A stretch of DNA of 64,000 nt from an uncultured delta proteobacterium (GCA_963792965.1 CAWBYW010000030.1:64001-128000), one strand, 5' to 3'; positions 33,778-62,239 are shown, counted from the stretch's first letter. Program-made: numbers and translations. The notes: a model not told the origin generated them from the letters alone.

Positions 33778-33881
33778 AGGCTCCCAGGAAAATCGGTGGC
33801 TCGATTCTTTTAGACCGGTTCTTACGTGAGGCGCCGCATCTCGGCACGAGTGACGATACCATTACACATGAGGAGAAAGCG

Positions 33882-38607: not shown

Positions 38608-39777
38608 CTAAAACCTCTCGATCTTGACGTCGTCCCCGCCCGCACCTTCCTCTTTTTCCTCCACGGGCTCCTTGTCGAACGCATCCCAGGTGGAATCGCT
38701 GGTAGACGAGATCCCCTTCACCCTGAGGGCGAAGTCGTCCGGGTTGCTGCTCTGGCGCAGCGCCTCGTCGTAGGTGATGAGCCCTTTCCTGTACAGGAAC
38801 ATCAGCGACTGGTCGAAGGTCTGCATCCCGTGGACGGTGAACCCCTTGGCTATGGCGTCATGGATCTCCTTGGTCTTTTCCTTATCGAAGATACACTCGC
38901 GGATAAGGGCCGTCGATATCAGCACCTCCACCGCGGGAACCCTCCCCTTGCCGTCGGCCCGGGGGACGAGTCGCTGGGAGACGATGCCCTTCAGGATCCC
39001 GCCAAGCTGATATCGGATCTGCTGCTGCTGATAGGGCGGAAAGACCGAGATGATACGGGTGACGGTCTCCGTGGCGTCGACCGTATGGAGGGTGCTCATG
39101 ACCAGGTGGCCCGTCTCGGCCGCCGTGAGGGCGGTCTCGATCGTCTCGAAGTCCCGCATCTCGCCCACGAGGATGACGTCCGGATCCTGCCGCAAGGCGC
39201 TCTTGAGCGCGACGGCAAAGCTCTCGGTATCGAAGCCGATCTCTCGCTGGTTGATGATGCTCTTCTTGTCCCGGTGGAGGAACTCGATGGGGTCCTCGAT
39301 CGTGATGATGTGGCAGGTCCGGTTGGAGTTGATATAGTCGATCATCGCCGCCAGCGTCGTCGACTTGCCGGAGCCGGTGGTCCCGGTCACCAGGATAAGA
39401 CCCCGCGGGTCCGAGGCGATCTTTTCGAGGATCCCGGGGAGAAAGAGCTCCGTGATGTTCTTTATCTTGACCGGGATCGAACGGAGGACAACCCCCATTG
39501 TCCCCCGCTGCTGGAAGACGTTGACACGGAACCTTCCGAGCCCGGGGACGCCGTACGCAAGGTCGACTTCGTTGATCTCCCGAAACCGCTCGAGCTGTTT
39601 CTTGTTCATGATGGTCTCGGCAATTTTGGAGATCTCGTCGGGCGTAAGACGCGGCGCGTTCTTGAGCGGGTACAGCGACCCGTCGATACGAAAGACCGGG
39701 GGGAGTCCCACCTTGAGATGGACGTCGGAGGCCCCCTGCTTTACCGCGATCTTTAAAACTTCATTGATTTCCATCAC
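38608..39777 (-). CDS. pilT: PilT/PilU-family type IV pilus retraction ATPase
   Basis: ASDVHL, RFRVNVF.QRG, GTTGSGKST, ITIEDPIE, ALRQDPDVILVGEMRD, AETGHLVMSTLHT, GMQTFDQ. Confidence 0.93.
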   Translation of the reverse strand: MMEINEVLKIAVKQGASDVHLKVGLPPVFRIDGSLYPLKNAPRLTPDEISKIAETIMNKKQLERFREINEVDLAYGVPGLGRFRVNVFQQRGTMGVVLRSIPVKIKNITELFLPGILEKIASDPRGLILVTGTTGSGKSTTLAAMIDYINSNRTCHIITIEDPIEFLHRDKKSIINQREIGFDTESFAVALKSALRQDPDVILVGEMRDFETIETALTAAETGHLVMSTLHTVDATETVTRIISVFPPYQQQQIRYQLGGILKGIVSQRLVPRADGKGRVPAVEVLISTALIRECIFDKEKTKEIHDAIAKGFTVHGMQTFDQSLMFLYRKGLITYDEALRQSSNPDDFALRVKGISSTSDSTWDAFDKEPVEEKEEGAGGDDVKIERF

Positions 39778-41391: not shown

Positions 41392-42679
41392 TTATCCTCC
41401 CTGTGCCGCATCCTCGGCGGGCGATCCAACCAGGAGATAGCGCCGTATCCACTCAAGCGCCATCTCGGAGGAGATGAGCCGGATTCGGCCTCGGTCGCCG
41501 TGAAAGCGGTAGCTCCGGGAGCGGATGCGGATCGTCCCGTCTTCGTCATAGGCCATCCCGATGACGACCGTGCCTACCGGCTTTTCCCGCGTCCCCCCGG
41601 ACGGACCGGCGATCCCGGTGATCGAGACGCCGATGTCTGACAGAGCCCTCTCTTTAATACCGCGGGCCATGGCCTCGGCGACCTCGGTGCTCACGGCGCC
41701 ACGCTCCGCGATGAGGTCGGGAGACACGCCCAGGACGTCCGTCTTGGACTCGTTGCTGTAGGTCACCACCCCCCTGAGAAAATAGGCGGAGCTTCCCGGA
41801 ATGGTCGGTGAGGCGCTGCGCAAGGAGCCCCCCGGTACACGATTCGGCAGTGGAAACGGTGACCTTCCCGCCAATGAGCATCCCCCCGACAACTCCCTCG
41901 AGGGTCTGGTCATCGGCCCCGAAGATCGTATTGCCGAGCGCGCCGCGCACCGTCGCCTCCACCTCCGAGGCGATACGCTGCGCGTCGTCCTTGGATACGT
42001 GCGACTGTGCGGTGACGGTCAGGTGGTTTTCGGGAAAGACCGGCAAAAAACCGATCGTCACTCCCTTGGGACTATACGGCACGCCCTTCAGACGCTCGTA
42101 CACCTGCGATTCCGAGAGACCGAAGATATGGAGCACCCTCCGCGTGAAGAAGACCCCCGGCCCGCTTTCCGCCTGGAGGATCGGGACGATTCCCTGGTCG
42201 GTCATCACCCGCATCTCTTCCGGGACACCGGGGACGACAAAGATCCGCGCGGCCGCCAGTTTGACCCAATACCCCGGGGCGGTCCCGACCGGGTTGGTGA
42301 TGACGCGAGCCCCATGGGGGATGAGCGCCTGCCGGTCGGCGTCGGCGGAGAGCTGAATTCCCCGCTTCTTATAGCGGTTGCGGATCTGCTCCTGGGCCTC
42401 GGGGGAAAGCACGAGCTGCCTTTCCAGCGCCTTGGCGATGCCCCGTGAGGTGATATCGTCCGGCGTGGGGCCCAGCCCCCCCGTCACCACGATCGCTTCG
42501 GCCCGCTCCAGGCCGCGCTTCACCGCGTCCACGATGGCCCCTTCATCGTCTCCCACGGTCGTCATGAAAACGATCCGTACCCCGACGGTCATCAGCCGTC
42601 CCGCGATGTAGGCCGAATTGGTATCGGTAACCAGCCCCGAGAGGAGCTCGTTGCCGACGGTGATGATCTCGCCCTTCAC
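41392..42679 (-). CDS. cinA: Competence/damage-inducible protein CinA (molybdopterin-binding-like + NMN deamidase; frameshift near 41803)
   Basis: EIITVGNELL, TGGLGPTPDDIT, GTAPG, PGVP.EM, AESCTGG; second frame PGSSAYF, TYSNESK, GAVS, ITGIAGPSGG, KPVGTV. Confidence 0.93.
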
Positions 42680-43191
42680 TGAATCCCCCGATATGCCAGT
42701 TCCCTGACCCCCAAAAAGACCCAAAGGGATAGATTGGCATAGATGCCCGCCAGAAGGTCGTCGCTCATCACCCCCAAGCCCCCCTGCACGTTCCTGTCGC
42801 ACCAGCCGACCGGGAAAGGCTTCACAATGTCAAAGAGCCGAAAGAGGAAAAACCCCGCCCCAACGGTCAACAGGCTCAGCGGCACAAACGCCATCGTGAC
42901 CAGGAAGCCGCAGATCTCGTCGATGACAATCTTCCGTGAGTCGTGTACCTCGAAAAGCCTGTCGGCTCTGTCGGCCACCCATATCCCCGCCGCAGACAGG
43001 ATAATCGTCCCGGAGACGTAGACGATCCTCCCGCCGACGCTCAGGAGGAGACACACCGGAATGCCGAGAAGCGTCCCGAACGTCCCCGGAATGAGCGGCA
43101 TATAGCCGAGCCCGAGGCCGGTCGCGGCCGCCTTGATGAGGAACTCACCCAGGTCCCGTTTGCGCCCGGCAATTATATTAGGTGGCCGCAT
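42676..43191 (-). CDS. pgpA: Phosphatidylglycerophosphatase A (start uncertain)
   Basis: ATGLGLGY.P..PGTFGT, IVIDEICG, LFRLFDIVKPFP, GGLGVMSDDLLAG. Confidence 0.92.
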   Translation of the reverse strand: MRPPNIIAGRKRDLGEFLIKAAATGLGLGYMPLIPGTFGTLLGIPVCLLLSVGGRIVYVSGTIILSAAGIWVADRADRLFEVHDSRKIVIDEICGFLVTMAFVPLSLLTVGAGFFLFRLFDIVKPFPVGWCDRNVQGGLGVMSDDLLAGIYANLSLWVFLGVRELAYRGIQ

Positions 43192-44659
43192 CGTTGTCAA
43201 GCCGCTCAACCTCGGAAAGGAACGCCTCCACAACCGTGGGGTCAAACTGCGTTCCGGCGTTCCGCTTGAGCTCTTCCAGCGCCTTGCCGGTCCCGAGCCG
43301 CTCCCGATACGAGCGGCTGGAGGTCATCGCATCAAACGCGTCGGCAACCGCAATGATCCGCGCAAGCAGCGGTATCTTATCGCCCACGATCCCATCGGGA
43401 TACCCGTTCCCATCGTACCACTCGTGGTGATGGTAGACGATCTCGGCGATATCCTCGAACTGCTGGATCGTGGAGAGGATTTCCCTCCCGATGACCGGGT
43501 GCATCTTGGTCTCCTCGTACTCGTCGATCTCAAGCTTATCCTTCTTGTTGAGGAGGAGCTCGGACACCCCGATCTTTCCGATATCGTGCAGCAACCCCGC
43601 CTGCGCCAACAGGTCGATGTCCCTCCGGGGAAGCCTCATGGCCCGGGCGATGGCCAGCGCATACCGGGTGACCCGCTCCGAATGGCCCGAGGCGTACTTG
43701 TCTTTCGCATCGAGCGTGCGCGCGAAACTCTTGACGGTATCGTCGAGGATGCTCACGATATCGCGATAGAGACGCGCGTTTTCCACGGCCACCGAGACAT
43801 TGTTGACGAGTATCGAAAGGGCCTTGGCCCGGCCCTCGGTAAAGGAGTAGCCCTGGGTGAAGGAGACCAGGGCGACGAAGCCCGGCGTCTCGCTCTTGAT
43901 ACGGATGGGGAACAGCAGGATCGACTCGACGTCCCTGCTGCCGTTGGCCACCAGTTCCATCTTCTTGATATCTATCTCGGAAAGGAGCGCCCAGTCTTTC
44001 CCGGCAAGGTACGAGAGCGCGTTCTCAATGTGGATCAGATCGGCGGCCTTTTCCTCTGATTTCTTATCCTTTCCGACGGCTTTGCTTATGATGGATATGT
44101 TGAGGATCATATCCTTCAGATACATCGTGGCGGCGTCGGCATCACCCTCCTTGAGAAGCGCGTCAAGCAGCATCGACAGGACGCTCTCCATGTCGAGGTG
44201 GGAGCTGATGGCCCTGCTGATGTCATAGAGCGCCATCGCTTCCTTCAGCTCGAGGTTTTCCTTGATGAGCCGCTGTTTTTCGAGGGCGTGCTCGATGATC
44301 CGCAGCAGATCCGCGAACTGGAAGGGCTTCATGATATAGTCGTAGGCGCCCTTCTTGATCGCCTCTACCGCGGTCTCGACGGTGGCAAACCCGGTCATCA
44401 TGATCGTGGTAACCCGCGTCCTGAGCAGATTGATCTGGTAGAGGAGCTCCATCCCGCCCATCTTCGGCATCTTCATATCGGTGATGACGAGGTCGGGCGA
44501 TGATTCCTGAATTATTTTGAGAGCGTCGATGCCATTCTCGGCGGTATATATGGTGAACCCCTCGTTTCCGAGCACATCGCTCAGAATCTCACGGATGGAG
44601 AACTCGTCGTCCACCACCACGATGATGCCCTTCTTCTTTTCCTTCTGCTCCGGCATCAT
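43178..44659 (-). CDS. Response regulator REC-GAF-like-HD-GYP cyclic dinucleotide phosphodiesterase
   Basis: VVDDE...ITDMKMP...KP receiver; central GAF-like segment ending VAVENARLY; GHSERV, LHDIGK, HHEWYDGNGYPDG, VADAFDAM, GTQFDP. Confidence 0.92.
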   Translation of the reverse strand: MMPEQKEKKKGIIVVVDDEFSIREILSDVLGNEGFTIYTAENGIDALKIIQESSPDLVITDMKMPKMGGMELLYQINLLRTRVTTIMMTGFATVETAVEAIKKGAYDYIMKPFQFADLLRIIEHALEKQRLIKENLELKEAMALYDISRAISSHLDMESVLSMLLDALLKEGDADAATMYLKDMILNISIISKAVGKDKKSEEKAADLIHIENALSYLAGKDWALLSEIDIKKMELVANGSRDVESILLFPIRIKSETPGFVALVSFTQGYSFTEGRAKALSILVNNVSVAVENARLYRDIVSILDDTVKSFARTLDAKDKYASGHSERVTRYALAIARAMRLPRRDIDLLAQAGLLHDIGKIGVSELLLNKKDKLEIDEYEETKMHPVIGREILSTIQQFEDIAEIVYHHHEWYDGNGYPDGIVGDKIPLLARIIAVADAFDAMTSSRSYRERLGTGKALEELKRNAGTQFDPTVVEAFLSEVERLDNDAAT

Positions 44660-44661
44660 GG

Positions 44662-45861
44662 TTACGCTTGGCTCCTCTCCCTCTTTTCCAGCACGCCGTT
44701 GACCGCGCCGATAACGAGGCGATAGACCCTGTCGATGGGAAGATGATGGCGCTGGGCGGCCGCCCTGACGTCCTCATACTCCGGATAGGCCCCGGAGATC
44801 ATTCCCGTTTCATCGAACGTGACCTTTACCCTAATGTCGCCGAGCTGTGTGGGGATCGTTTCTATCCGACGGCGTGCCTTGACACGCCGCTCGCGGCCGA
44901 TCCTCACGCCGATGCTCGTCGTCTCCGACAGAATACAGTCGATAAGCCGCGGGCTCACAGCTGGCTCCGCCAGCACGGTAAGCGCCGTCCCCGGCCTCTC
45001 CTTTTTCATGATCGTGGCCGTGAGGGTAACGTCCAGCGCCCCCAGCTCAAACAGACGCCCCATCACGTAGTCATAAAACTGGGGGTTCATGTCGTCGATG
45101 TGCGTCGTGATGACGTCGACCTCGTCCTGGGCGGACCAATCTGTCTCTTGTCCCCGGATAAGCCTCAACAGGTTGGGCCGGTCGACTAATTCCCGGTCTC
45201 CCGCGCCAAACCCCGATCCCTCGATGACCATCGGGGGGACCCCCCCGAAGCCCGACGCCAGCGCCTTGACGATCGCGGCGCCCGTCGGGGTCACCAGCTC
45301 CCCATCGATGCCGGCGTCGACTACCGGGAGGCCGGCAAGCAACACCGCGGTCGCGGGTGCCGGCAACGGCAACACGCCGTGCCGTGACTTCACGAAACCT
45401 CGGCCGACCGGCAGCGGTGACGAGACGACCCGAACGGGACCCATCGCCGCCATCCCGAGCGAGACCCCAACGATATCGATGATTGAATCGACCGCGCCGA
45501 CTTCATGGAAATGGACATGGTCCGGGCTTTGGCCATGGACCTTCCCTTCCGCCTCGGCCAGGAGCGAGAATATCCTGATCGCGGTGTCCCGGGCCGGTCC
45601 GGGGGACATCTTCGATTCGAGGAGCTCCCTAATGGCTCCGTAATCGCGCTCATGGGCGGCCTTCTCGTCGTCGAGAACCGACACATTCACCGCCTCGATC
45701 CCGTTTCGCTTTATCTTTTCGGCCGCTATACGCGCGCCTATTCCGAGGCGTCCCACCTCGCCCTCAAGGACCGAGATGTCAAAGCCGAGCGCGATGAGCG
45801 CGCCCAGGAACATATCCCCGGAGATGCCTGAGAAGGCATCGATATAGAGTACCTTTCCCAT
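44662..45861 (-). CDS. larC: Nickel-pincer cofactor nickel insertase LarC
   Basis: FSGISGDMFLGAL, AEGKVHG, VHFHEVGAVDSIIDIVG, PAPAT, ELVTPTGAA, IDDMNP, MKKERPG, PEYED. Confidence 0.93.
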   Translation of the reverse strand: MGKVLYIDAFSGISGDMFLGALIALGFDISVLEGEVGRLGIGARIAAEKIKRNGIEAVNVSVLDDEKAAHERDYGAIRELLESKMSPGPARDTAIRIFSLLAEAEGKVHGQSPDHVHFHEVGAVDSIIDIVGVSLGMAAMGPVRVVSSPLPVGRGFVKSRHGVLPLPAPATAVLLAGLPVVDAGIDGELVTPTGAAIVKALASGFGGVPPMVIEGSGFGAGDRELVDRPNLLRLIRGQETDWSAQDEVDVITTHIDDMNPQFYDYVMGRLFELGALDVTLTATIMKKERPGTALTVLAEPAVSPRLIDCILSETTSIGVRIGRERRVKARRRIETIPTQLGDIRVKVTFDETGMISGAYPEYEDVRAAAQRHHLPIDRVYRLVIGAVNGVLEKRERSQA

Positions 45862-45888
45862 CGATTCCCTGAAGTCTCGGCCCCCCCG

Positions 45889-46635
45889 TTATCGGTTTAT
45901 CAGCGAGGCGACGTATCCCGCGCCGAACCCGTTATCGATGTTTACCACGCATACTCCCGCCGAGCAGGAATTGAGCATGCCCAGCAGTGCCGAGAGGCCG
46001 CCGAATCCGGCTCCGTAACCGACGCTCGTGGGCACCGCCACGACCGGCCGCTCCACGATGCCGCCGATGACGCTCGGCAGCGCACCTTCCATCCCCGCCG
46101 CGACGATCAGCACGTTGGCCTCCCTGAGCTTCTCGATATGGTTCATAAGGCGATGGATCCCCGCTACTCCCACGTCCCACAGACGCTCGGTCTTATTTCC
46201 CATCAGCTCACAGACCAGTGCCGCCTCCTCCGCCACGGGGATATCGGAGGTGCCCGCGGAGATCACCATGATGACTCCACGCCCCCGGATTTCTATCTCG
46301 GCCTCGCGTAGCACGAGGGCCCGCGCGCGCTCATGGAAGGCCATCTCCGGCATCTCGGCCCTGACCGCCGCGGCCATCTCATGGTCCACCCTTGTGACGA
46401 GGATGTTGTGGCTGGAAGACCTCAGGCCGCGCACGATACTTACGATATCCCGGGCTTCCTTGCCCTGGCCCATGACGACTTCCGGAAAGCCCTGCCTGAG
46501 GGCCCGGTGGGTATCGATCATCGCAAATCCGAGGTCTATGAAGGGGAGGGATTTGAGCTTCTCGATCGCCTCTTCAACGGGGATCTGCCCCTCCTTCACC
46601 CCCGTGAGGAGCCGCTTTACTTCGTGCTGGTTCAT
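45889..46635 (-). CDS. larB: Nickel-pincer cofactor biosynthesis carboxylase/hydrolase LarB
   Basis: D.HR..RQGFPEV, AGTSDIPVAEEA, DVGVAGIHRL, AGMEGALPSV, VPTSVGYG, VVNIDNGFGA. Confidence 0.94.
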   Translation of the reverse strand: MNQHEVKRLLTGVKEGQIPVEEAIEKLKSLPFIDLGFAMIDTHRALRQGFPEVVMGQGKEARDIVSIVRGLRSSSHNILVTRVDHEMAAAVRAEMPEMAFHERARALVLREAEIEIRGRGVIMVISAGTSDIPVAEEAALVCELMGNKTERLWDVGVAGIHRLMNHIEKLREANVLIVAAGMEGALPSVIGGIVERPVVAVPTSVGYGAGFGGLSALLGMLNSCSAGVCVVNIDNGFGAGYVASLINR

Positions 46636-47234
46636 CCGGCTCCTTCCGACAGGTACTTCATCGACTCGTTGGATAACAGGAAGAAGAAGAGGATTTTGAG
46701 TCCGGTATCTCCGACGAGAAATTCACATAGAAACACGAGGGCGAACTCCGGACCGCCGTCGCCCGCAGAGAGAACCGTGGGCACAAATTCCCCCACCTCC
46801 ATATAGGCAAGCCGCGGGACGGACGGTATCAGGGCGACGTTAAAAGAATCCCCCAGGACGTTGATGTATGCGGACGTGACGATGTTCCCGACCTCGCCGA
46901 GTACCGAATTCTTGAAATGCTCGATCTCGTCGTCGCTTATCCACCTCGTGGCGACCTTCTTGGTGATCTTGTTGGTGTCATTGGACGAAAGCACGAGATA
47001 TATATCCCCCGAGAGTATCCCGTGGACATCAAATGATATAAGCGTGATCTTGTCGTGGCCCGTTCCGACAAAATTGACGATTTCGTTGACCTTAATCACG
47101 TCTACGGCGCTATTGACCACGCTCACCGTCTCTCCCGTCATCTGGGACAGCGCCAGCGCCGAGCTGATGAGGGCGTCCTGAGAGCGCTTTTCCAAGAGCT
47201 TACTTTTGTCGATAAGAATCGAGTCAATGCCCAT
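46632..47234 (-). CDS. cheC: CheC-family CheY-P phosphatase (DifG-like)
   Basis: ALALSQMTG; SVLGEVGNIVTSAYINVL (ExxN site); PSVP; follows cheA. Confidence 0.85.
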   Translation of the reverse strand: MGIDSILIDKSKLLEKRSQDALISSALALSQMTGETVSVVNSAVDVIKVNEIVNFVGTGHDKITLISFDVHGILSGDIYLVLSSNDTNKITKKVATRWISDDEIEHFKNSVLGEVGNIVTSAYINVLGDSFNVALIPSVPRLAYMEVGEFVPTVLSAGDGGPEFALVFLCEFLVGDTGLKILFFFLLSNESMKYLSEGAG

Positions 47235-49463
47235 CTAAAAGAGGTTCCCTATGTCGATGATCAAAACGGGCTTGCCGTCGCCCAGGATGGTAACCCCCGA
47301 AAAGCCCTGTACTTTTTCGAGAGGATGGCCCAGTGATTTGATGAATATCTCCTGGCTTCCGATGATTTCGTCGACCTCAAGGCCGATGTGTTTTCCCCGC
47401 ACCTCGGAGATCACCAGCGAGATATGTTCCTTCTCGGCCCTGCCGTCGGCAATCCCGAGGAGGTCGGCAAGCCCGAAGAGGGGGACCATATCGTCATCGA
47501 TGAGGACCACTCGCTGGTTCTGGCTCTTCTGCACGGCCCGGGCGGTGACCTCGGCGGACTTGAGGGTTTTTGAGAGCGGCAACGCGAAGGTCTCGCCTCC
47601 CGACCTGATCAGGAGCGCCTGGATGATCGCTACCGTCAGAGGGAGGATCAGGATGATCTTCGTTCCCACTCCTATCGTTGATTCGAGACGCACCGATCCC
47701 CCGAGGGACTCGACCTTCGTCTTGACCACATCCATTCCCACCCCTCGGCCCGATATGTCGCTCACCTGCTTACTGGTGGAAAGATTCGGCATGAACGTGA
47801 GGAGGAGGAGGTCCTTATCGCTGAGGAGGGAGACCTCTTGCTTCTTCATGATTCCCCGGGTCACCGCCGCTTCCCGGATCTTTTCCGGATCGATGCCCCG
47901 GCCGTCGTCGGAAACATCAAGGATCACCAGGTCCCGCTCACGATAGGCGGTGAGGGTGATGCTCCCGGCCGGGCTCTTGTTCTGTTTCCGCCGCTCATCG
48001 GGGGGCTCAATCCCGTGATCAACGGCGTTGCGCAGTATGTGAACCAGGGGATCCGTCAGCTCCTCGAGGATGGCACGGTCAAGCTCGATATCGCCGCCGG
48101 TGATAACGAACTGGACCTCTTTGTTCCTCTCCCGCGCGAGGTTCCGTACGAGCCGTGGCATTCGGGACAGGATGCTTTCCAGCGGCATCATCCTGACGGT
48201 AATGACCTTTGTGTGAAGCTCTCGAATCAGGCTCTCCAGCCGGTTTACCGATTCATTCAGGGGAGTGATGTCCAGCCCCTTGGTCTGATCCTGGATACGG
48301 GATTTTGTGATAATGAGCTCCCCGACGATGTTGATGAAACTCTCCAGGAGGTCCGTCCCGATCCGCACCGACCGGGGCAGCACCGTGCCCGCCTCGCCTG
48401 AGGGGAGCATATCCTCGACGCGCGAGCCCTCTTCCTTGGGCTGTTCTTCCTTGGCGGGAGTCTTTTCCTCGGGTGGCGGTGATCCCACCTTCGGCGGAGT
48501 TTTTTCCTGAGTGGGCGTTGATTGCACCGTTGTCGTTATCTCGAACTCGGGCTCTTCTTCCTCCTCCCAGTCTATCGGAGGCTTTCCCACTAACGGCTCG
48601 TCGTCTATCACGAGCCGCGCACGCCCCAGCACCGAGGGGGTCGAGCGTTTCTTATCGGAAGCGTCACCGGCCTCTCGCCCCGGCTCGGGCTCGGAGGTCT
48701 CCGCGGGCTCTTCCGCCCATTCGCTCTCCGGCGTTTTCTTGCCCTTTACCTTGGTCTTGACGATCTCGAAGGACTCGATGGAGGGCAGGCCCTTCAGAGC
48801 CCTGTTTACGTCGTCCTCACCCACTCCCGTGACGAGGGTCGTCTTGAGCTGTCTTCCCTCCAACCCTCTCTTGATCTCTTCGAGCCCGGGAACCAGGCCC
48901 ATCACCTTACCGAGCTCGGAGATCTTTTTTATCGCCAACAATCCCTTGACATTCGGCTTGGGCTCATCTTTGGCGACCCTCAACGTGATCAGGAAGGCGG
49001 CCTGGTCCGTATCCTCCGCGCGCTCTTCTCCCTTTTCGTCCGCGACCGGCTGCTTCTCACTTTTCGGCTTTTTTTCCGGGACCACCCCTCCCTGGGCGCG
49101 CTCGATCATGCCGAGGACCTCTTTCAGCCCCCCCTCGAGATTTCCCCCCACGTCAACCGCGTTCATCTGAACCTCGAGAACGTCTATCGCCCTCAACAGG
49201 ACATCGACGATGTGGGGGCTGGCCTCGACCTCACCCTTTCTCACGAGGTCCATCAGGTCTTCCACCTTGTGCGTCAGCTCCGCGATGGGTGTGTAGCCCA
49301 TCGACGCCGCCATTCCCTTGATGGAGTGGGCCTCTCGAAAGATCGCGTTTATCACGTCCATATTTTCGGGATTCTTCTCTAAATCGAGGGAGAGCCCGCT
49401 CAACTTCGACAGGTGTTCACGGGACTCCTCCATGAATATCTTCTTATAGCGGGACATATCCAT
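47235..49463 (-). CDS. cheA: Chemotaxis histidine kinase CheA (DifE-like)
   Basis: Hpt IFREAHSIKGMA; P2-like region; long Pro/Glu linker; GELII; HILRNAVDHGIE; DDGRGID; SGRGVGMDVV; CheW-like C-terminus ILGDG. Confidence 0.96.
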   Translation of the reverse strand: MDMSRYKKIFMEESREHLSKLSGLSLDLEKNPENMDVINAIFREAHSIKGMAASMGYTPIAELTHKVEDLMDLVRKGEVEASPHIVDVLLRAIDVLEVQMNAVDVGGNLEGGLKEVLGMIERAQGGVVPEKKPKSEKQPVADEKGEERAEDTDQAAFLITLRVAKDEPKPNVKGLLAIKKISELGKVMGLVPGLEEIKRGLEGRQLKTTLVTGVGEDDVNRALKGLPSIESFEIVKTKVKGKKTPESEWAEEPAETSEPEPGREAGDASDKKRSTPSVLGRARLVIDDEPLVGKPPIDWEEEEEPEFEITTTVQSTPTQEKTPPKVGSPPPEEKTPAKEEQPKEEGSRVEDMLPSGEAGTVLPRSVRIGTDLLESFINIVGELIITKSRIQDQTKGLDITPLNESVNRLESLIRELHTKVITVRMMPLESILSRMPRLVRNLARERNKEVQFVITGGDIELDRAILEELTDPLVHILRNAVDHGIEPPDERRKQNKSPAGSITLTAYRERDLVILDVSDDGRGIDPEKIREAAVTRGIMKKQEVSLLSDKDLLLLTFMPNLSTSKQVSDISGRGVGMDVVKTKVESLGGSVRLESTIGVGTKIILILPLTVAIIQALLIRSGGETFALPLSKTLKSAEVTARAVQKSQNQRVVLIDDDMVPLFGLADLLGIADGRAEKEHISLVISEVRGKHIGLEVDEIIGSQEIFIKSLGHPLEKVQGFSGVTILGDGKPVLIIDIGNLF

Positions 49464-49466
49464 GGT

Positions 49467-50051
49467 TCACGTCCTCAAAGAGAATTGAATAATTTCCTCG
49501 GCCACCTCATGGGGGGTCAGCACCTTATCGACCAGCCCCTGCATGAGCGCGCGGCCGGGCATCCCGTATATGGCGCTGGACTCTTCGTCCTCGACAATGG
49601 TGGCCCCTCCCATCCGCTTGATGGCGGCAAATCCCTCCACGCCGTCCCTCCCCATGCCGGAGAGGATCACCCCCATGAGCCTTTCCCGATAGATGGGCGC
49701 CGCCGCGATCATGGTGATATCCGCCGAGGGCATCACGCCGGCCTTCGGACCCGAGTCGTCCAGATCGATCACCACCCCCTCCGTATCGGGGACCAGGACG
49801 AGGTGTTTTCCTCCCGGGGCCAGGAAGATCATTCCCTCGCGTATCTTCATCCCGGCGGCGCCGACGCAGGCAGGCAATTGTGAGCGCCTCTCTATACGTT
49901 TGGCAAAAGAATCAATAAAACTTGGGAGCATATGTTGTATTACTATTATTGCAGATGAAATGCCCTGGGGAATTGTTGAAAGAATATCCAATAAGACCTT
50001 GGGACCACCCGTTGAGGCGGCGATGACCACGAGCCTGCTCGCATCAGCCAT
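49467..50051 (-). CDS. cheB: CheB methylesterase, catalytic domain only (no receiver)
   Basis: 194 aa with intact triad motifs AASTGG, QHM, SGMGRDG, plus YGMP; ATG directly after the cheY stop. Confidence 0.9.
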   Translation of the reverse strand: MADASRLVVIAASTGGPKVLLDILSTIPQGISSAIIVIQHMLPSFIDSFAKRIERRSQLPACVGAAGMKIREGMIFLAPGGKHLVLVPDTEGVVIDLDDSGPKAGVMPSADITMIAAAPIYRERLMGVILSGMGRDGVEGFAAIKRMGGATIVEDEESSAIYGMPGRALMQGLVDKVLTPHEVAEEIIQFSLRT

Positions 50052-50054
50052 AAA

Positions 50055-50423
50055 CTATTTCACCCCGGCCACCCTCTTTACCATTTCGATAACCCGTTCC
50101 GGGTCGAAAGGTTTGATGATGTAGTCTTTTGCGCCGGCGTTAATGGCTTCCAGGACCAGAGACTCCTGGCCGAGGGCGCTGCACATAATGATACGCGCAT
50201 CTTTATTGATGGCGATGATCTCCCTGACGGCATCTATGCCGCTTTTGAGCGGCATGACGATATCCATCGTTATGACGTCGGGCTTGAGCATTTTGAATTT
50301 TTCTACCGCATCGACCCCGTCTGTGGCCTCCCCCGCCAGCTCAAAACCAGCCGACGTGAGAATATCCTTCAGCATGGTTCTCATGAAGCTCGCATCATCC
50401 ACGATCAAGACCTTAAGACTCAT
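50055..50423 (-). CDS. cheY: Single-domain response regulator CheY (DifD-like)
   Basis: LIVDDASFMR, PDVITMDIVMP, MCSALGQ, GAKDYIIKPF. Confidence 0.93.
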   Translation of the reverse strand: MSLKVLIVDDASFMRTMLKDILTSAGFELAGEATDGVDAVEKFKMLKPDVITMDIVMPLKSGIDAVREIIAINKDARIIMCSALGQESLVLEAINAGAKDYIIKPFDPERVIEMVKRVAGVK

Positions 50424-50896
50424 TTCGCCCCCGAACCGACAAAAGACTTGTTTACAAAATCGATGAGCTTTTCCACATCCATGATATTGATTATCCTGTC
50501 ACCCATATTGAGTATCGCCGAGACGAAACTCTCCTCTCCGGCACCTATCCTGACTATTTCCTTATTCAACGATTCATCGTCGGTCGTAATCACGTCGGTA
50601 ACCAACCCCGTGACAAATCCGACGTTCATATCTTCATAATTGAGGATAATGATCTGCTCAAGGGGCTGTTTCTCTTTCTTGAGTCGCAGCATTTGCGCAA
50701 GATCGATCACCGTGATGATGCGCCCGGCCAGATTCATGATGCCTGAGATGAACGCGGGCGCCCGCGGTACAAAGGTTATCGTCTCGGGAGGGGCGATCCT
50801 CTCTACCCGTTTTATATCCATCCCGAATACTTCGTTCGAGAGATTGAAGACGATGATCTGCCGCTCCGAGGCGGAGCTTTCGGTACTCTCGCCCAT
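50420..50896 (-). CDS. cheW: Chemotaxis coupling protein CheW
   Basis: IVFNL..E.FG, TFVPRAPAFISGIMNLAGRIITVIDL. Confidence 0.9.
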   Translation of the reverse strand: MGESTESSASERQIIVFNLSNEVFGMDIKRVERIAPPETITFVPRAPAFISGIMNLAGRIITVIDLAQMLRLKKEKQPLEQIIILNYEDMNVGFVTGLVTDVITTDDESLNKEIVRIGAGEESFVSAILNMGDRIINIMDVEKLIDFVNKSFVGSGAK

Positions 50897-50905
50897 TGCG
50901 ATCCC

Positions 50906-52183
50906 TTACGCCTCCGGCTCAAGCTTGAAGTTGTCCACAACCGACTTCAGCTGCTCCGACGTCATGGAGAGCTCCTGTGCCGACGAGGCCATCTCTTCCA
51001 TAGAGGCCGTCTGCTCCTCCGTGGCGGCACTCACCTCTTCGGTTGCCGCCGCGTTATCTTCGGCCAGCCTCGCTATCTCGTCGATGGCCGTGACCATCTC
51101 CTCGGCCTCCTTTGCCTGCTCCACGGCCAGCTGCGATATCCGGTTGAGCTCGTGGAGCGTATCCAGGGCGATCCGGATGATCCCGCCAAGGGACTGCACC
51201 ACCGACGTGATGACGTCCTTTCCGTCGTTGACGTTCTTAAGGACCTCCCTCACCTCTACGTTCGTCTCCTGGCTCCCCTTGCTGATGTCGGTCACGAGAC
51301 CCGTGATCTCCTCGGCGAATTTTGTTGTTGTTTCTGACAGCTTCCTGATCTCGTCGGCGACGACCGCAAACCCACGGCCGTACTCGCCCGCGCGGGCCGC
51401 TTCGATCGTCGCGTTGAGGGCCAACAGGTTGGTCTGGTGGGCGACGTTCCTGATGACCTCGACGATCTTTCCGATTTCCTTGGCCTTCTCGGAAAAATCG
51501 AGCATGTTCTTGCCGATCGTCTCCATGTTGTTAAAGACCACCAGCATCCGCTCCATGGCGCTATCCACCATTTTGCCGGCCGAACCGGCTTCTTCCTGGC
51601 TCTGGCTGGAGGACGCCGAGAGGTCTTGCGCCGTATCGGCAACCCGCTCGATCTTCTTTGCGATGTCTTTGATGATATTGCTGGTCTTGTCGACGAGCTC
51701 GGCCTGATGTTCGGCGCCCCTGGATATCTGCTCTATGGTCGAGGCGATCTCCTCTGTGGAAGCATTGATCTCTTCGGCCGAGGAGGACAGGCCCTGCGCC
51801 GATTCGGATACCTGTGCCGCAGTCCTCTTGACGTGGGAAACCAGATCACGGAGGCTACCCAGCATGCGATTGATGGAGTTGGCCAGGTCCACGGTCTCAT
51901 CGGGGAAAACCTTCTTGTGCGATATTTCAATATAGTGGCTCAGGTCGCCCTGGCTGATGATCTCTGTGGTAGCCGTCAAATCCCGGAAATCCTTCGTGAA
52001 GTTTCTGGTGAAGACCCACCCGATGATCAGGCCGACCAGGATCGCCGTGAGGGCCGCCAGGATGTTGGCGATAACTTCGTTGTCGACCACGTGAAGGACT
52101 TTCACCAGATACGGGATGATGACGGACGTGAGGATAACCAAAATAAATCCAAAGATGAATTTGTAGCCGATTTCTATTCTCAT
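50906..52183 (-). CDS. Methyl-accepting chemotaxis protein without a periplasmic sensor (DifA-like)
   Basis: Two TM helices joined by a loop of about 10 aa, HAMP (GDLS...DE..DLA.SIN.M), [33 protein letters not shown], methylation helices rich in EE/EQ pairs. Confidence 0.93.
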
Positions 52184-52236
52184 CTCTATCCTCCCATTTT
52201 CGAATATACTACACTAATTGTCCGCAAAAAGGAATA

Positions 52237-53082
52237 CTATTTTGAGACTTTGCGATAAATACGATCGGCGACGCTCACCGATTCGAACAACTGCTTGGTG
52301 CGTCCGACCAGGGACTCCGCCCGGCCCAGCACCAAAAAACCCCCGGGGGTAAGCTGACGGCAGAAGCTCTCTTCGATCATTTCCTGATAACTCCGCAGGA
52401 AATAGATGAGTATATTCCTGGCGAGGATCAGGTCAAACCGGTGGTACATCTTGTAGGTAAACACGTCCTTCTTTAAGAAGAGCGCCAGGTTTCTGACCGA
52501 AGGGGCTATCTGGTAGCCCTTCTTGGTTGCGACGAAATATTTCTTGAGGATCTCCTTCGGGAGTCCGGCGACCTTCTCTTCACTGTAGACCCCCTTGAGC
52601 GCGCAGAAGAGGGCGCGCTTGTCGATATCCGTCCCGATGACCCTCAGGTCGTACCTCGCGCCGAGTCGCTGAAAATATTCCAGGAAGAGGATGGCGATGC
52701 TGTATGGCTCCTCTCCGGTGGCGCATCCAACGCTCAAGACGTTGATCCTTCGACTCCCCTCCTCCTCACGCAGCCGGATGATCCGGGGGATCACCAGGTC
52801 CCTGATCTTATCAAAGGTCTCTTGATTCCGAAAAAAACGGGTGACATTGATCGTCAGCACCGAAACGAGCTTCTTGTATTCGGCGGGATCTTTCTCCGCG
52901 ATATCAAGGTACGCCTCGGTCGACGCGGCCTGTATGGCCCTCATCCTGACCTGAAGCCGTCGCCCGACATAGGCATCCTTATAAAGGTCCAGGTCGACGT
53001 TGCTGCCTCGTCTGAGCATCGCGCGTAACCTGGCAAACGTTCGGGGGGCCAGTATATCGTTTTCTTCTTCGCTTCCCGTCAT
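52237..53082 (-). CDS. cheR: Chemotaxis methyltransferase CheR
   Basis: LTINVTRFFRN, SVGCATGEEPYSIA, GTDID, FDLILARNILIYF, GFLVLG..ES. Confidence 0.95.
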   Translation of the reverse strand: MTGSEEENDILAPRTFARLRAMLRRGSNVDLDLYKDAYVGRRLQVRMRAIQAASTEAYLDIAEKDPAEYKKLVSVLTINVTRFFRNQETFDKIRDLVIPRIIRLREEEGSRRINVLSVGCATGEEPYSIAILFLEYFQRLGARYDLRVIGTDIDKRALFCALKGVYSEEKVAGLPKEILKKYFVATKKGYQIAPSVRNLALFLKKDVFTYKMYHRFDLILARNILIYFLRSYQEMIEESFCRQLTPGGFLVLGRAESLVGRTKQLFESVSVADRIYRKVSK

Positions 53083-53088
53083 ATGGCG

Positions 53089-53466
53089 TTAAAACGGGAG
53101 CAGTTCTCTGATGTCTTTGGCGACACGCCGGCTCATGACGGAAATCAGCCCGAGGTTCGAGTCCCTCTTGGCGATGACCGTCAGCAACGCCTTCCCCTCG
53201 ATGTCGGTCAACACGATCTGGCCCGACGAGCTCAGGACCAACGTGTTCTGGATGTCTCCTTTCTTGAGCTCCTTGACCGCCCGATTGATGACGCTCTGTG
53301 CGGCGGACGATATGGCCGCGATGATCTCCTCCTCAGCGCTTGTGGGGAGCGTCGACGCGAGCACCAGCCCTTCGTAGGTCTCCAGGACAATGGCCTCGAT
53401 GCCCGGTATGCCCTCGGAGAGGTCTTTTATGGTCTTGTTCAACTCGACTGCTTTGTAGGTTCCCAC
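53089..53466 (-). CDS. Roadblock/LC7 (MglB-like) protein
   Basis: IPGIEAIVL..YEGLVLAS, IAAISSA, AVKEL..G, NLGLI; paired with a small GTPase. Confidence 0.87.
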   Translation of the reverse strand: MGTYKAVELNKTIKDLSEGIPGIEAIVLETYEGLVLASTLPTSAEEEIIAAISSAAQSVINRAVKELKKGDIQNTLVLSSSGQIVLTDIEGKALLTVIAKRDSNLGLISVMSRRVAKDIRELLPF

Positions 53467-53484
53467 GGCAATTCCTTAAATGGG

Positions 53485-53997
53485 TTAGAGTCCTTTGAGC
53501 AACGTATTGAGGACCTCAAGCGATCGCTTCTTGTCGGTGGCGCTGCAGCCGACGATCATCGAACGATCGTCCAGACCCAATTCCGCCGACAGCTCCTTTA
53601 CCGAAAGCGCGCCGGAGAGGTCCTGTTTGTTTGCCGCAACCACGAACGGCTCTTCGAGGATGTCCTTGAAAAACTTGATGATCTCCCTGGCTTCCTTGAA
53701 CCTCTTGTGATCGGATGAATCGACGACGACGATAAATCCGAGCATGTTTTCGGTGAGGACCTCCCACATGAAATCAAACTGCTGCTGGCCCGGGGTGCCG
53801 AAGAGATAAATTTTCCTGTCACCGAGTGTCACCCTCCCAAAGTCCATGGCTACCGTGGTCTCCCCCTTGATCGCCGCGTGTTCCGGCAACGTCACCTTCT
53901 TTTCGGTGCTTACCACATCTATCTCGCTGACCGTCTTGATGAATTGTGTCTTACCGCTGTTGAAAGGACCGGTCACGACTACCTTCAAGCGATGCAT
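53485..53997 (-). CDS. Small GTPase of the MglA/conservon CvnD type
   Basis: AGGAGG SD; P-loop GPFNSGKT, TTVAMDFG, LFGTPGQ, ANKQD, CSA (G1-G5 motifs). Confidence 0.9.
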   Translation of the reverse strand: MHRLKVVVTGPFNSGKTQFIKTVSEIDVVSTEKKVTLPEHAAIKGETTVAMDFGRVTLGDRKIYLFGTPGQQQFDFMWEVLTENMLGFIVVVDSSDHKRFKEAREIIKFFKDILEEPFVVAANKQDLSGALSVKELSAELGLDDRSMIVGCSATDKKRSLEVLNTLLKGL

Positions 53998-56275: not shown

Positions 56276-57427
56276 ATGGCCGCGACGGATAATAAGGGAC
56301 TGCAATTCTTTGTGACGTTGGTTGTCTTTCTCCTCCTCTTTCTCGGATTTTACTATTTCATGTCGAAGGGAGATAAGGGCAAGGAGACCGCAAAGGTAGA
56401 GATTGCGATCGCCTACGTCAACGACGGTGCGGCCTATATCTCCGGCCTTAAGGCGGAAAACGCATTGAAAATTGCGATCGGCGAGACGATCGTATGGGCC
56501 CCAAACGGCGCCGGCCTCTACTATCTGGACAACTACGCAAAGCTCAAATATTATGACATCAAGAGCACCGAGTCAAAAGACATCTTCATCAATGTCGCAT
56601 CGTTTGCCGTCTCTCCCAAGGGCGATCTGATCGCCGTCGTGGAAAAAAATGAGGCGGGCCATCTCAAGATCATCACCAGCAGCGGGGAACCGGTCGCCGA
56701 CCTCGACACCGGCACGGCGCCGTGCTGGTTTCGTGAGGGCGAGCGGATCGCCTATATCAGCGGGGGTGCCGTCTATGACGCCGCGGGCGGCGACTGGAAC
56801 TCGTATCCGCTCTACAATGGGGCCCCTAACGACCTTTCGGTCTCTCCCGACGGCAAATCGATTCTCTTTACCGAATGGAAAGGCACTGAGAGCCGCCTCG
56901 TCCTCTTGGATATCGCCACGAAGGGCACGTCGGTGGTAGAGTCGGCCGCCTTCGAGGCCGCTCCGACGGACGCATCCCCCCTCGGTTTTTCATACCCCCG
57001 GTTCTTTGCCGACAAGAACGCGGCCCTCTTCGTCTATAACGACAAGAAGGGGGGAAAGATCTACCGATTCGATCGCGAGACGAAGGCGATAACGGGGATC
57101 TCCGACGAGGGGGGCCCGATCGATTCGCTCTCTATCTCCCCGAGCTCCGAGCTGGTCGCCTATTTCTTCATCCTCAAATCGAACTTCCCGAACTTCACCG
57201 AGAAGGTGGGCGACAAACAGGTGCCGATGGACTTCGGGCCGAAGGACCTGAACACCGACTCCATCGCGCGTCTCTACGCCCGGGGCGCCAAGGGGGAGAT
57301 CGGCGGGGATAAGCTCAACAACCATAACACGAAACAGCTGCTCGACAGCGACGTGATCCGCATCGTCGACCTCAAGAGAAGTGTCGTCTGGTCGCTCGGC
57401 AGCGGCCAATACCCGGCGCTGAAATAG
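56276..57427 (+). CDS. Membrane-anchored TolB/WD40-like beta-propeller protein
   Basis: AAGGAG SD; N-terminal TM; repeated WAPNG, VSPKG, VSPDG, ISPSS blade motifs. Confidence 0.75.
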   Translation: MAATDNKGLQFFVTLVVFLLLFLGFYYFMSKGDKGKETAKVEIAIAYVNDGAAYISGLKAENALKIAIGETIVWAPNGAGLYYLDNYAKLKYYDIKSTESKDIFINVASFAVSPKGDLIAVVEKNEAGHLKIITSSGEPVADLDTGTAPCWFREGERIAYISGGAVYDAAGGDWNSYPLYNGAPNDLSVSPDGKSILFTEWKGTESRLVLLDIATKGTSVVESAAFEAAPTDASPLGFSYPRFFADKNAALFVYNDKKGGKIYRFDRETKAITGISDEGGPIDSLSISPSSELVAYFFILKSNFPNFTEKVGDKQVPMDFGPKDLNTDSIARLYARGAKGEIGGDKLNNHNTKQLLDSDVIRIVDLKRSVVWSLGSGQYPALK

Positions 57428-57490
57428 GCTTATGGGGGAGCAGTAACGCGATCGGCCGTGTCCGGACGCGATACCGGAGATGATAAAGAG

Positions 57491-57520
57491 AAAGGGAGAT
57501 TTTTGGATCTCCCTTTTTTT
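57491..57520. terminator. Intrinsic terminator, probably bidirectional
   Basis: AAAGGGAGAT-TTTTGG-ATCTCCCTTT-TTTT perfect stem between convergent genes. Confidence 0.8.
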
Positions 57521-57818
57521 GTGGCATATAGTGGCGGTCTTCCGGAAACCCGGGATAACCCGAGTCACTTGTTTCCCGATTCCGGAAAAGAAAACTTGTA
57601 GGGGTTCACATCGTGTGTCTTGTAACGGCGATCTGCTCTCATGCTGTTGTGTCCCGCGTATCAAAGATGAGACGGCGGCCTTTCTTGGGCTTACCCGTCC
57701 GCTAACGTGTCCTAAATTATGGAAGCCGACCACGTGTCAATACGTGAAGTCGGCCTTCTCGGACTTGCCGTCGTCTTTCCGCCCCGACTATCGGATGCGC
57801 ATCCCTCCTATGGACAAC

Positions 57819-58121
57819 CTAAAAACCCTCTACCGGCACCTTCAGGAAGCCCGCGATATGGACCTGCTCATCGAAGCTGCAGTCGGGGCAATCCAGGAAG
57901 TCCGCGTCGGAGTTATAGGTAAAGTCCTTCCCGTTGATAGTGCCGTAATAGTCACCGTCGGCCCACTTGTTTATGACGACGATCTTGTCTCCCTGTACAT
58001 CCTTGACGACGGTAGGACCCGAGCCGCCGATTAGATAGACGGCGGCCGCGATCGCCACAACAAGGATCACGACGATACCGACGATCAGCACCGTTATGGT
58101 TCCTTTCTTTCTTTCAGCCAC
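57819..58121 (-). CDS. Small membrane-anchored hypothetical protein with CxxC (3' end uncertain)
   Basis: GGAGG SD, GTG start, MAERKK then a strong TM helix, followed by a soluble segment with CPDC. Confidence 0.6.
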   Translation of the reverse strand: MAERKKGTITVLIVGIVVILVVAIAAAVYLIGGSGPTVVKDVQGDKIVVINKWADGDYYGTINGKDFTYNSDADFLDCPDCSFDEQVHIAGFLKVPVEGF

Positions 58122-61317: not shown

Positions 61318-62239
61318 ATGGAAACAAGCAGTCTGATCAGCGAAGTCCGCTCCCTCCTCAAAAAGAGGAACGCGATCTTCCTTGCCCACAACTACCAACG
61401 GCCCGAGGTTCAGGACGCCGCCGACCTGACGGGAGACTCCCTCGGGCTCTCCATCGCGGCCGCCGCCACCACGGCCGATATCATCGTCTTTGCCGGCGTT
61501 CATTTCATGGCGGAAAGCGCGGCCATCCTCTCTCCCAATAAGACGGTCCTCATCCCCCGGCCGGAGGCGGGGTGCCCCATGGCCGACATGATCACCAAAG
61601 AGGACGCGCTTGACTTCAAGAATCGATACCCCGGCAGCAACGCTTGTCACCTACGTCAACTCTACGGCCGACGTAAAGGCGGTCACGGATATCTGCTGCA
61701 CATCGGCCAACGCCGTGAGCGTCGTCAAGTTCTCTGGATGCCGACGTCGTCCTCATGGCGCCGGACAGAAACCTCGCCCACTGGACCGCCCGCTTTTCCA
61801 AGAAAGAGATTCACTGGTGGGACGGCTTTTGCCCGACCCACGAGCGGTTGACCGCCGATGAAGTGAAGGCGGTGAAGGCCAAGCACCCGGATGCCTTTTT
61901 CATCGCCCATCCGGAGTGCCGCCCCTCGGTGGTCGACCTGGCGGATAAGGTCGCCAGCACCTCCGGAATGCTCGATTTTGTCAAGACATCGTCCCTGAAG
62001 AAATTTATCATCGGCACGGAGCTTGGTATCCTTCACCCGCTCAAAAAGGCCAGCCCGGACAAGACGTTCATACCGGCCGCCGAGCATATGATCTGTCCGA
62101 ACATGAAGCTGACCACGCTTGCGGACGTGCTGGAGATGTCTGGCGAGACACGAAGAACGTCGTAACCGTCGCCCCCGACATTCGCCGATTCGCCAAGGAG
62201 GCGCTGGACCGCATGCTCGCCGTCAAGAGGGTGGATTAG
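61318..62239 (+). CDS. nadA: Quinolinate synthase (frameshifts near 61637, 61730, 62140)
   Basis: [28 protein letters not shown]; [18 protein letters not shown]; PDRNL, CPTH, AHPEC, GTELG, CPNMK; ends [15 protein letters not shown]. Confidence 0.93.

Follow-up and report, generated by a model that had tools for sequence, protein, structure and literature searches.

What brings a signal to a chemoreceptor that has no sensing domain, and which proteins act with the Group 5 GTPases of the MglA family? These two questions meet in one operon within a 64,000-nucleotide stretch of DNA from an uncultured delta proteobacterium (GCA_963792965.1 CAWBYW010000030.1:64001-128000; hereafter the window), where genes for a small GTPase and a roadblock protein stand directly in front of a chemosensory (che) gene set with a sensorless receptor of the DifA class. 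Coupling of some kind between the GTPase/roadblock pair and the che array appears probable. As to its form, we tentatively favor, at rather less than an even chance, a history in which a Group-5-type pair lost its PATAN neighbor, was recruited to a Dif-like operon in one deltaproteobacterial lineage and now works in the same pathway.

Operon structure

Nine open reading frames (ORFs) lie on the minus strand between positions 53997 and 46632. Their order is GTPase, roadblock, cheR, mcp, cheW, cheY, cheB, cheA and cheC, and the intergenic gaps measure 18, 6, 53, 9, -4, 3, 3 and 0 bp (Table 1). The initial annotation of this DNA, made from the sequence alone, had given this order and these eight gaps, and both were borne out. 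Domains were assigned by profile searches with Pfam and NCBIfam, and a Pfam domain was found for each gene: in operon order, small GTPase, Robl_LC7, CheR, HAMP plus MCPsignal, CheW, receiver, CheB methylesterase, Hpt-P2-dimer-HATPase-CheW, and CheC. The G+C and third-position G+C of the operon genes lie within the range of their neighbors. The run had been taken to end at cheC; the nine genes stand and the end does not, since larB, larC and a gene for a REC-GAF-HD-GYP response regulator continue it. The cheC and larB frames overlap by 4 bp in the window and in two relatives, L001 and L002, each likewise recorded as an uncultured delta proteobacterium.

The GTPase and its roadblock partner

The GTPase carries the motifs G1 GPFNSGKT, K44, T47-T48, G3 GTPGQ, G4 NKQD and G5 CSA. 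Its AlphaFold2 model (mean predicted local distance difference test, pLDDT, 84) has the small-GTPase fold; in a Foldseek search with this model, Arf-type GTPases filled the best 50 ranks listed, which have no power to group it. When the best 8000 candidates were scored, its own clade comprised 38 database clusters at 65-95% identity, followed by Chloroflexota proteins at 52-57%. G1, K44, T47-T48, G3 and G4 are invariant or almost so in the 39 rows of the clade alignment; T47, T48, G67, T68, G70 and Q71 are identical in 39/39, as are the N and K of G4, and G5 reads [CL]xA.

The available text of PMC4316618 describes Groups 2-5 of MglA by a Thr at G2 in place of the arginine finger and by GTPGQ, and both are present here; the Group 1 traits, an intrinsic arginine finger and TVPGQ, are not. 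The GTPase had been labeled as of the CvnD or Group 2 MglA type, for which the same source gives NxFD at G4 and DAR at G5. Three conservon controls agree with that description (N-x-F-[DP] in 3/3, DAR in 2/3), and all three lie in a kinase-roadblock-DUF742-GTPase operon; the window has NKQD and [CL]xA and lacks that operon, with neither a CvnA kinase nor DUF742. In the tree, the GTPase clade has 100/100 support on a long stem, and the three conservon GTPases branch apart from it (100/99), with a warning from the tree program that long branches meet. Thus, the assignment to the MglA family, with a roadblock of the MglB type, holds up, and Group 2 membership does not: the comparison with conservon members that had been suggested to settle the label went against it. 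Judged by its G4/G5 motifs, by its gene order and by its place in the tree beside Chloroflexota and Deinococcota members with GTPGQ and a canonical G4, the GTPase is a Group-5-type MglA relative of those proteins, where outgroup rows owe the name Group 5 to their motifs, taxon and PATAN context rather than to the list in PMC4316618, and where the trees have no Group 3 or Group 4 (archaeal) sequences, so that placement between Groups 5 and 4 falls outside them. An arginine following GTPGQx is found in 78/78 Chloroflexota relatives versus 1/39 clade rows; regulation therefore seems to have changed on the stem of this clade.

The roadblock protein has the fold and the acidic-Gly loop between beta1 and beta2 that are characteristic of the MglB type. 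Residue 32 is E in 25 of 34 rows and D in the other nine, and G33 is present in all 34. This loop corresponds to Asp33-Gly34 of MfpD, and the protein matches roadblocks of known structure, CvnB5 and MfpD among them. Lys61 of MfpB and Asp33-Gly34 of MfpD have been proposed as a catalytic pair, and because K44 and [ED]32-G33 match them, the two proteins are likely to be a working pair of GTPase and GTPase-activating protein (GAP). The roadblock clade holds 31 clusters at 65-94% identity plus one fragment, and forms one single cluster at the 50% level; the GTPase/roadblock module seems confined to one lineage. Forty-five longer roadblock homologues were chosen from the best 150 of 1452 matches; the fusions among them were to AAA_22, DUF4388, receiver or MshEN domains, and none of the 45 has a chemotaxis domain. 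Ten of them (P0303, P0304, P0341, P0357, P0373, P0380, P0393, P0404, P0407 and P0410) combine an N-terminal AAA_22 ATPase with a C-terminal roadblock, and P0392 is MshEN fused to a roadblock; these fusions are possibly linked to secretion or pili.

The chemosensory genes

About 8 residues separate the two hydrophobic segments of the receptor, which also has a HAMP domain and five methylation-type EE/EQ pairs; this agrees with its earlier description as an MCP without a sensing domain. Its cytoplasmic part is colinear over 301 residues, with a net gap of zero, with the Thermotoga receptor 2ch7 (TM1143), which we take to be of class 44H (PMC2577667); the receptor is thus consistent with class 44H. 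Its own clade consists of five database clusters that are 71-91% identical over the full length, and the next relatives examined, including Geobacteraceae and Desulfuromonadales records, are at 44-51%. Compared by eye, the consensus of this outgroup agrees with GSU3196 as given in the PMC2577667 supplement.

The main text of that paper, as far as it is available, defines a Dif-like cluster by a receptor with two transmembrane (TM) segments, a loop of 3-10 residues and a 44H domain, together with CheA, CheW, CheY and CheC as well as CheD, with CheR in place of difB. Here the short-loop, two-TM receptor, the 44H domain and cheA, cheW, cheY and cheC are all present, and the resemblance to Dif noted initially is supported. 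None of the ORFs from dinG to cinA is a cheD, and cheB lacks a receiver; for these reasons the cluster counts as a variant. On these gene-level comparisons, we regard the che part as a Geobacter-type Dif-like system.

In alignment, CheB matches the esterase domain of CheB proteins of known structure, and its receiver-less layout recurs in L001 and L002. We considered that cheY and cheB might be one frameshifted cheB; this was ruled out by the same split in three genomes and by the receiver, which NCBIfam matches best to CheY (128.5 bits, versus 99 bits for the CheB receiver). When CheC was aligned to Thermotoga CheC, the second E-x-x-N site was intact and the first degenerate, as also in L001 and L002.

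Putative promoters

A candidate sigma-70 promoter, P1, lies ahead of the GTPase gene and is invariant in 34 of 51 columns among the window, L001 and L002. A general promoter scan demanded T at the last -10 position, which placed P1 outside its listing. The spacer between cheR and mcp is invariant at 43/53 columns across the three (31/39 without the ribosome-site end), compared with only 28/126 in the leader behind P1 and 6/18 and 5/27 in other spacers. Such conservation suggests a further control element inside the operon (P2), and GTPase-roadblock-cheR may be controlled separately from mcp to cheC. Thus the single promoter candidate first noted is a conserved element in front of the GTPase, but it is doubtful as the only one, because the second conserved element precedes mcp. 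One strict sigma-54 pattern gave no match on the minus strand between 44 and 57 kb.

Conservation and linkage in relatives

A genome scan with the GTPase as query was followed up for the best 80 of 567 confirmed relatives, of which L001 and L002 fall in the same clade and 78 are Chloroflexota by title. The whole operon is present in order in both clade genomes; in L001, mcp and cheB seem to contain indel errors. Four-fold degenerate sites differ at 40-65% across the block between the window and these genomes, and the roadblock protein is nevertheless 92% and 95% identical to its L001 and L002 counterparts. Recent transfer as the source of this identity was ruled out, since the four-fold sites of the roadblock gene differ at 54-60%, like those of its neighbors. 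The receptor is 91-93% identical, the GTPase 82-84%, CheY 84-93%, CheR 73-76%, CheW 67-73%, CheC 67-71% and larC 66-68%; relative to L001, no protein of the block is more conserved than roadblock and receptor, and relative to L002 both are in the top three, where CheY reaches 93%. The roadblock protein was more conserved than its GTPase in 3/3 genome pairs and in seven of nine length-matched pairs, whereas among Deinococcota and conservon controls it was the less conserved of the two in 8/9 within-group pairs. Such constraint would fit an additional binding partner of the roadblock.

Each of the three proteins GTPase, roadblock and receptor falls in a tight clade of two tiers. In the distant tier, nine of the 31 roadblock clusters have a longest contig identical in size to that of a GTPase cluster, and one of five receptor clusters is likewise matched (14,340 bp), where chance would give about 2.5%, or 0.04% above 10 kb. 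On this indirect evidence, the linkage seems to extend to the 70%-identity tier.

Outside the clade the gene context differs. DUF4388 (PATAN) is encoded directly upstream of the GTPase at 76 of the 78 Chloroflexota loci listed, and a roadblock at one. None of the 78 has cheR, mcp, cheW, cheB or cheC listed, and for 61 of them the downstream sequence spans 9.5 kb or more; a short Hpt-like match to cheA occurs at one. No match to DUF4388 was found in the 64-kb window or in the two 20-kb loci of L001 and L002. A plasmid search gave 156 records with GTPase relatives, all below 60% identity, and the seven regions inspected had no che genes within 1.5-3 kb. On Thermus and Deinococcus plasmids, an upstream gene (DUF4388 in 2/4) precedes GTPase and roadblock, and protoglobin, EAL or HD genes often come next. 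In general, relatives of the GTPase tend to lead signaling operons (V4R, REC-GGDEF, protoglobin, EAL, HD).

Two of these arrangements deserve description in themselves. The Chloroflexota operon (L003-L080) comprises DUF4388, GTPase, alpha/beta hydrolase (49 loci), V4R (48), hexapeptide-repeat (42), dehydrogenase-like (29) and REC-GGDEF (49) genes, mostly with no adjoining roadblock. The Thermus plasmid operons (L081:2369-4498, L083:2348-6441) join DUF4388-GTPase-roadblock to protoglobin and EAL genes, which suggests a gas-sensing G-protein system.

Is the pair coupled to the array?

Gene composition, intact catalytic motifs, clade structure and conserved linkage are direct observations. Coupling is supported because order and tight joins are kept in 2/2 clade genomes despite the four-fold divergence; because P1 is conserved directly ahead of the GTPase and the roadblock-cheR join is 6 bp in the window and about 7 bp in L001 and L002; because the roadblock is so highly conserved while synonymous sites are near saturation; because GTPase, roadblock and receptor form tight two-tier clades with some matching contig sizes in the distant tier; and because the clade lost the post-G3 arginine and lacks PATAN at all three loci, in a family whose members tend to lead signaling operons.

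Several results weigh against recruitment into the che pathway. The tested flanks (dinG, glycosidase, SLT, larB, larC, HD-GYP) are also syntenic in L001 and L002, so synteny alone is no proof of coupling; the adjacency originally put forward is thus kept in 2/2 clade genomes but does not stand out beyond one lineage or from background synteny. larB, presumably unrelated, overlaps cheC in all three genomes, and tight joins therefore persist here with no evident common function. Among the 80 relatives listed by the scan, just two are clade genomes, the conserved element before mcp may cut the core che genes off from P1, and the genome may carry a PATAN gene at another site; in Group 5, a PATAN neighbor is occasional rather than obligatory. 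The mean pairwise identity over the nine matched pairs was 0.73 for GTPase and 0.70 for roadblock, the pairs behind this comparison are not independent, and the conservation of the receptor has no control. The want of roadblock-che fusions among the homologues described above counts on the same side.

These points are what would be expected if the GTPase and roadblock were a passenger, that is, a self-contained switch whose partners lie elsewhere (for example, a PATAN protein or a pilus motor), fixed beside cheR by an ancestral rearrangement next to an ordinary Geobacter-type Dif-like cluster. This remains a strong model, because the join to larB at the far end of the operon is equally tight, and it also accommodates the synteny of the whole neighborhood, the candidate internal promoter and the lack of che core genes at all 78 nearest outside relatives listed. 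It accounts less well for the conserved promoter and 6-7 bp join common to the pair and cheR, for the absence of the usual PATAN neighbor, for the unusual constraint on the roadblock and for linkage that seems to reach the 70% tier; we consider it almost as probable as recruitment. If it is correct, the finding shrinks to a Dif-like variant whose CheB lacks a receiver, and its interest would be modest.

Direction of the signal

If the pair was recruited as we favor, family precedent predicts that a roadblock dimer would bind the GTPase 2:1 and act as its GAP, that receptor, CheW and CheA would form a membrane complex, that CheY and the one-site CheC would drain phosphate, and that CheR and the receiver-less CheB would set receptor methylation without phosphorylation feedback. 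We propose in addition that the roadblock may serve as a hub by making contact with a che component as well, and that the signal most likely passes from array to switch: the state of the kinase would alter GAP action and hence the GTP-bound fraction, and the GTP form might then act on surface behavior, e.g. pili or matrix, in the manner of Frz on MglA or CvnA on CvnD. The folding of a receptor cytoplasmic dimer (residues 58-425) with a roadblock dimer gave a score of 0.00, which, with controls not folded, is counted neither way. Among coupled models, output appears more likely than input, because the GTPase is downstream of the kinase in Frz-MglA and the conservon, as in the characterized MglA-family systems described in the texts available, and because sensorless receptors occur in clusters described without a GTPase.

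The reverse direction was the initial suggestion, namely that the G-protein module supplies the missing input: the GTP state of the switch would control the receptor, through contact of roadblock or GTPase with the HAMP or methylation helices or through gating of CheR, and with a receiver-less CheB methylation would be the signal rather than adaptation. The lack of a sensing domain in the receptor and of a regulatory domain in CheB fits this proposal, as do the tight first unit of GTPase, roadblock and cheR, the place of roadblock and receptor among the most conserved proteins of the block, and the indirect and open link from pili to DifA in Myxococcus, as discussed in the available part of PMC5544727. 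The receptor is indeed sensorless, but the input role is weakened, since orthologous receptors in Geobacter, Desulfuromonas and Myxococcus clusters are equally sensorless and their published gene sets, which do not extend to the flanks, include no GTPase; the sensing gap thus appears to predate the switch. The downstream position of known MglA-family GTPases also speaks against it. An unregulated CheB esterase can suffice for adaptation, as in Escherichia coli, which further lessens its appeal. We judge this reading unlikely. The same low rating applies to its fullest form, a G-protein-coupled array in which the switch would bind receptor or CheR and set the kinase via methylation, with receiver-less CheB as a constant counterweight. 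If true, it would be a chemotaxis-type pathway with a Ras-like nucleotide state as its stimulus and would give a direct handle on the switching of DifA-class receptors.

A further proposal is that the pair passes no signal and instead places the array or CheR at the pole or at pilus bases, as MglA/MglB do with motility machines. NTPases encoded in che operons (ParA-like) are known to position chemoreceptor clusters, and, besides the MglA/MglB precedent, cyanobacterial PATAN partners of related GTPases have been described as binding the pilus motor. The Group 1 arginine finger and TVPGQ of the polarity MglA are missing from this GTPase, however, DifA foci are reported to be spread around the cell periphery, and the pilT of the window is a recA-linked paralogue rather than an established pilus motor; localization is thus quite improbable. 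In comparison, recruitment with the switch as output remains our tentative preference. The apparent restriction to one uncultured lineage limits its reach.

Neighboring genes and other features of the window

Coordinates of the operon and its control elements are collected in Table 1. The REC-GAF-HD-GYP protein is 75-78% identical, and its position kept, in L001 and L002; by its position it is a candidate cyclic di-GMP output that may be linked to CheA. The larB-larC spacer is 27 bp in the window versus about 180-200 bp in L001 and L002. GSU0140 of G. sulfurreducens, annotated as AIR-carboxylase-like, has been described as required for growth on electrodes; equivalence to the larB/larC genes is not implied. 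A perfect sigma-70 match at 43200-43172, ahead of pgpA, probably starts the next transcription unit.

Table 1. Positions of the genes and putative control elements in the window
Feature	Position	Strand	Basis or remark
Candidate sigma-70 promoter P1	54156..54184	-	-35 TTGACT 54184-54179, 17 nt, -10 TATAAA 54161-54156; predicted function
Small Ras-like GTPase, MglA family, Group-5 type, 170 aa	53485..53997	-	Motifs, tree, predicted fold
Roadblock/LC7 (MglB-type), probable GAP, 125 aa	53089..53466	-	PF03259, E 8e-14
CheR methyltransferase, 281 aa	52237..53082	-	PF01739 + PF03705
cheR-mcp spacer, candidate internal promoter P2 and ribosome site	52184..52236	-	TAGTAT -10-like 52211-52206, weak -35; predicted function
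Sensorless two-TM receptor, HAMP + 44H, DifA/GSU3196-like, 425 aa	50906..52183	-	Hydropathy, alignment
CheW (DifC-like)	50420..50896	-	PF01584
CheY, DifD-like single receiver	50055..50423	-	PF00072
Stand-alone CheB methylesterase without receiver	49467..50051	-	PF01339 only; triad S13/H40/D111 present
CheA: Hpt (His46), P2, long acidic linker, dimer, HATPase, CheW-like	47235..49463	-	Pfam
CheC, DifG-like	46632..47234	-	PF04509 at residues 110-142 only
larB + larC (nickel pincer cofactor)	44662-46635	-	Directly behind cheC
REC-GAF-HD-GYP response regulator	43178..44659	-	Pfam/NCBIfam; larB + larC between gene and cheC

A PilT/PilU-family ATPase (TIGR01420, above cut-off) is encoded between recA and recX at 38608-39777 (minus strand). 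This placement is the Geobacter pilT1 arrangement, and the available text of PMC5065972 ties pilT1 to recA and not to the main pilus motor. The genes cinA (41392-42802), leuA (7703-9243) and nadA (61318-61851) look frameshift-split or truncated; these breaks are probably assembly indels, and none of them touches a gene of the operon. Long ORFs with no confident Pfam family lie at 1310-3589 (minus strand), 32302-35223 and 56276-58121; such ORFs include a 759-residue coiled-coil-like protein and a 383-residue probable beta-propeller kept in L001 and L002. A stand-alone CHAT (caspase-like) domain protein at 62437-63561 (plus strand) is syntenic in L001 and L002.

Comparison with known systems

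In the literature searched, outside which most subscription journals fall, no description of a GTPase-roadblock pair in a che operon was found, in agreement with the initial statement that no characterized system has this composition. In the supplement of PMC4316618, five che terms were unmatched in two of the three files; the neighborhood table S2, which may be outside those two, may list cases. The same paper states that Group 5 MglA gene neighborhoods "vary widely", and no partner network for these GTPases is described in the texts consulted. Atlas searches returned family-level look-alikes only. Relevant portions of PMC12236503, PMC3945109, PMC13015309, PMC5585712, 10.1101/2022.05.07.491037 and 10.1101/2021.06.11.447907 were also drawn on. 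The parts are known, their arrangement was not found in print, and a functional link with the che array is plausible.

As described in the accessible parts of PMC2577667 and PMC8235581, the Dif-like cluster of Geobacter and Desulfuromonas (GSU3195-3202) shares cheR, a two-TM 44H receptor with a tiny loop, cheW, cheY, cheA and cheC with the operon reported here; unlike that cluster, ours has no cheD, has a receiver-less cheB between cheY and cheA, and has the GTPase and roadblock in front. The Dif system of Myxococcus xanthus (DifA, C, D, E and G), which governs exopolysaccharide (slime) and attachment to surfaces, likewise has a sensorless two-TM HAMP 44H receptor, similar in size to the one here, with CheW, CheY, CheA and CheC. 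Published descriptions give DifA as a 413-residue, two-TM, HAMP, 44H protein, and the likeness to it is by description rather than by alignment. The Myxococcus cluster differs in having difB and no CheR, and its input is reported to come through pili, PilB and StkA (PMC5544727).

The pair resembles the Group 5 MglA/PATAN systems of Chloroflexota, Thermus and Deinococcus described in PMC4316618 in its GTPGQ, TT at G2, [NT][KR]xD at G4 and GTPase-then-roadblock order, and the GTPase is 50-57% identical to Chloroflexota Group 5-type proteins. It differs from them in the lack of a PATAN gene, the loss of the post-G3 arginine, the che operon downstream and its separate, long-stemmed clade. With the actinobacterial conservon (CvnA-D, Mfp) it shares the GTPase and roadblock, the Lys/acidic-Gly pair (MfpB K61 and MfpD D33-G34; here K44 and E32-G33) and the encoding of both beside a membrane TM-HAMP signaling protein; the G4/G5 motifs, gene order and branch are different, and CvnA kinase and DUF742 are absent. 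In Frz-RomR-MglA/MglB (Group 1), a chemosensory system connects with an MglA/MglB switch. There, as far as described in the sources available, unlinked genes are joined via response regulators, and the Group 1 catalytic motifs of that system are absent here. Where MglA is known to be linked to a chemosensory system, the genes lie apart. One operon with both offers a compact, well-delimited group of proteins for addressing the direction of signaling and the points of contact in vitro.

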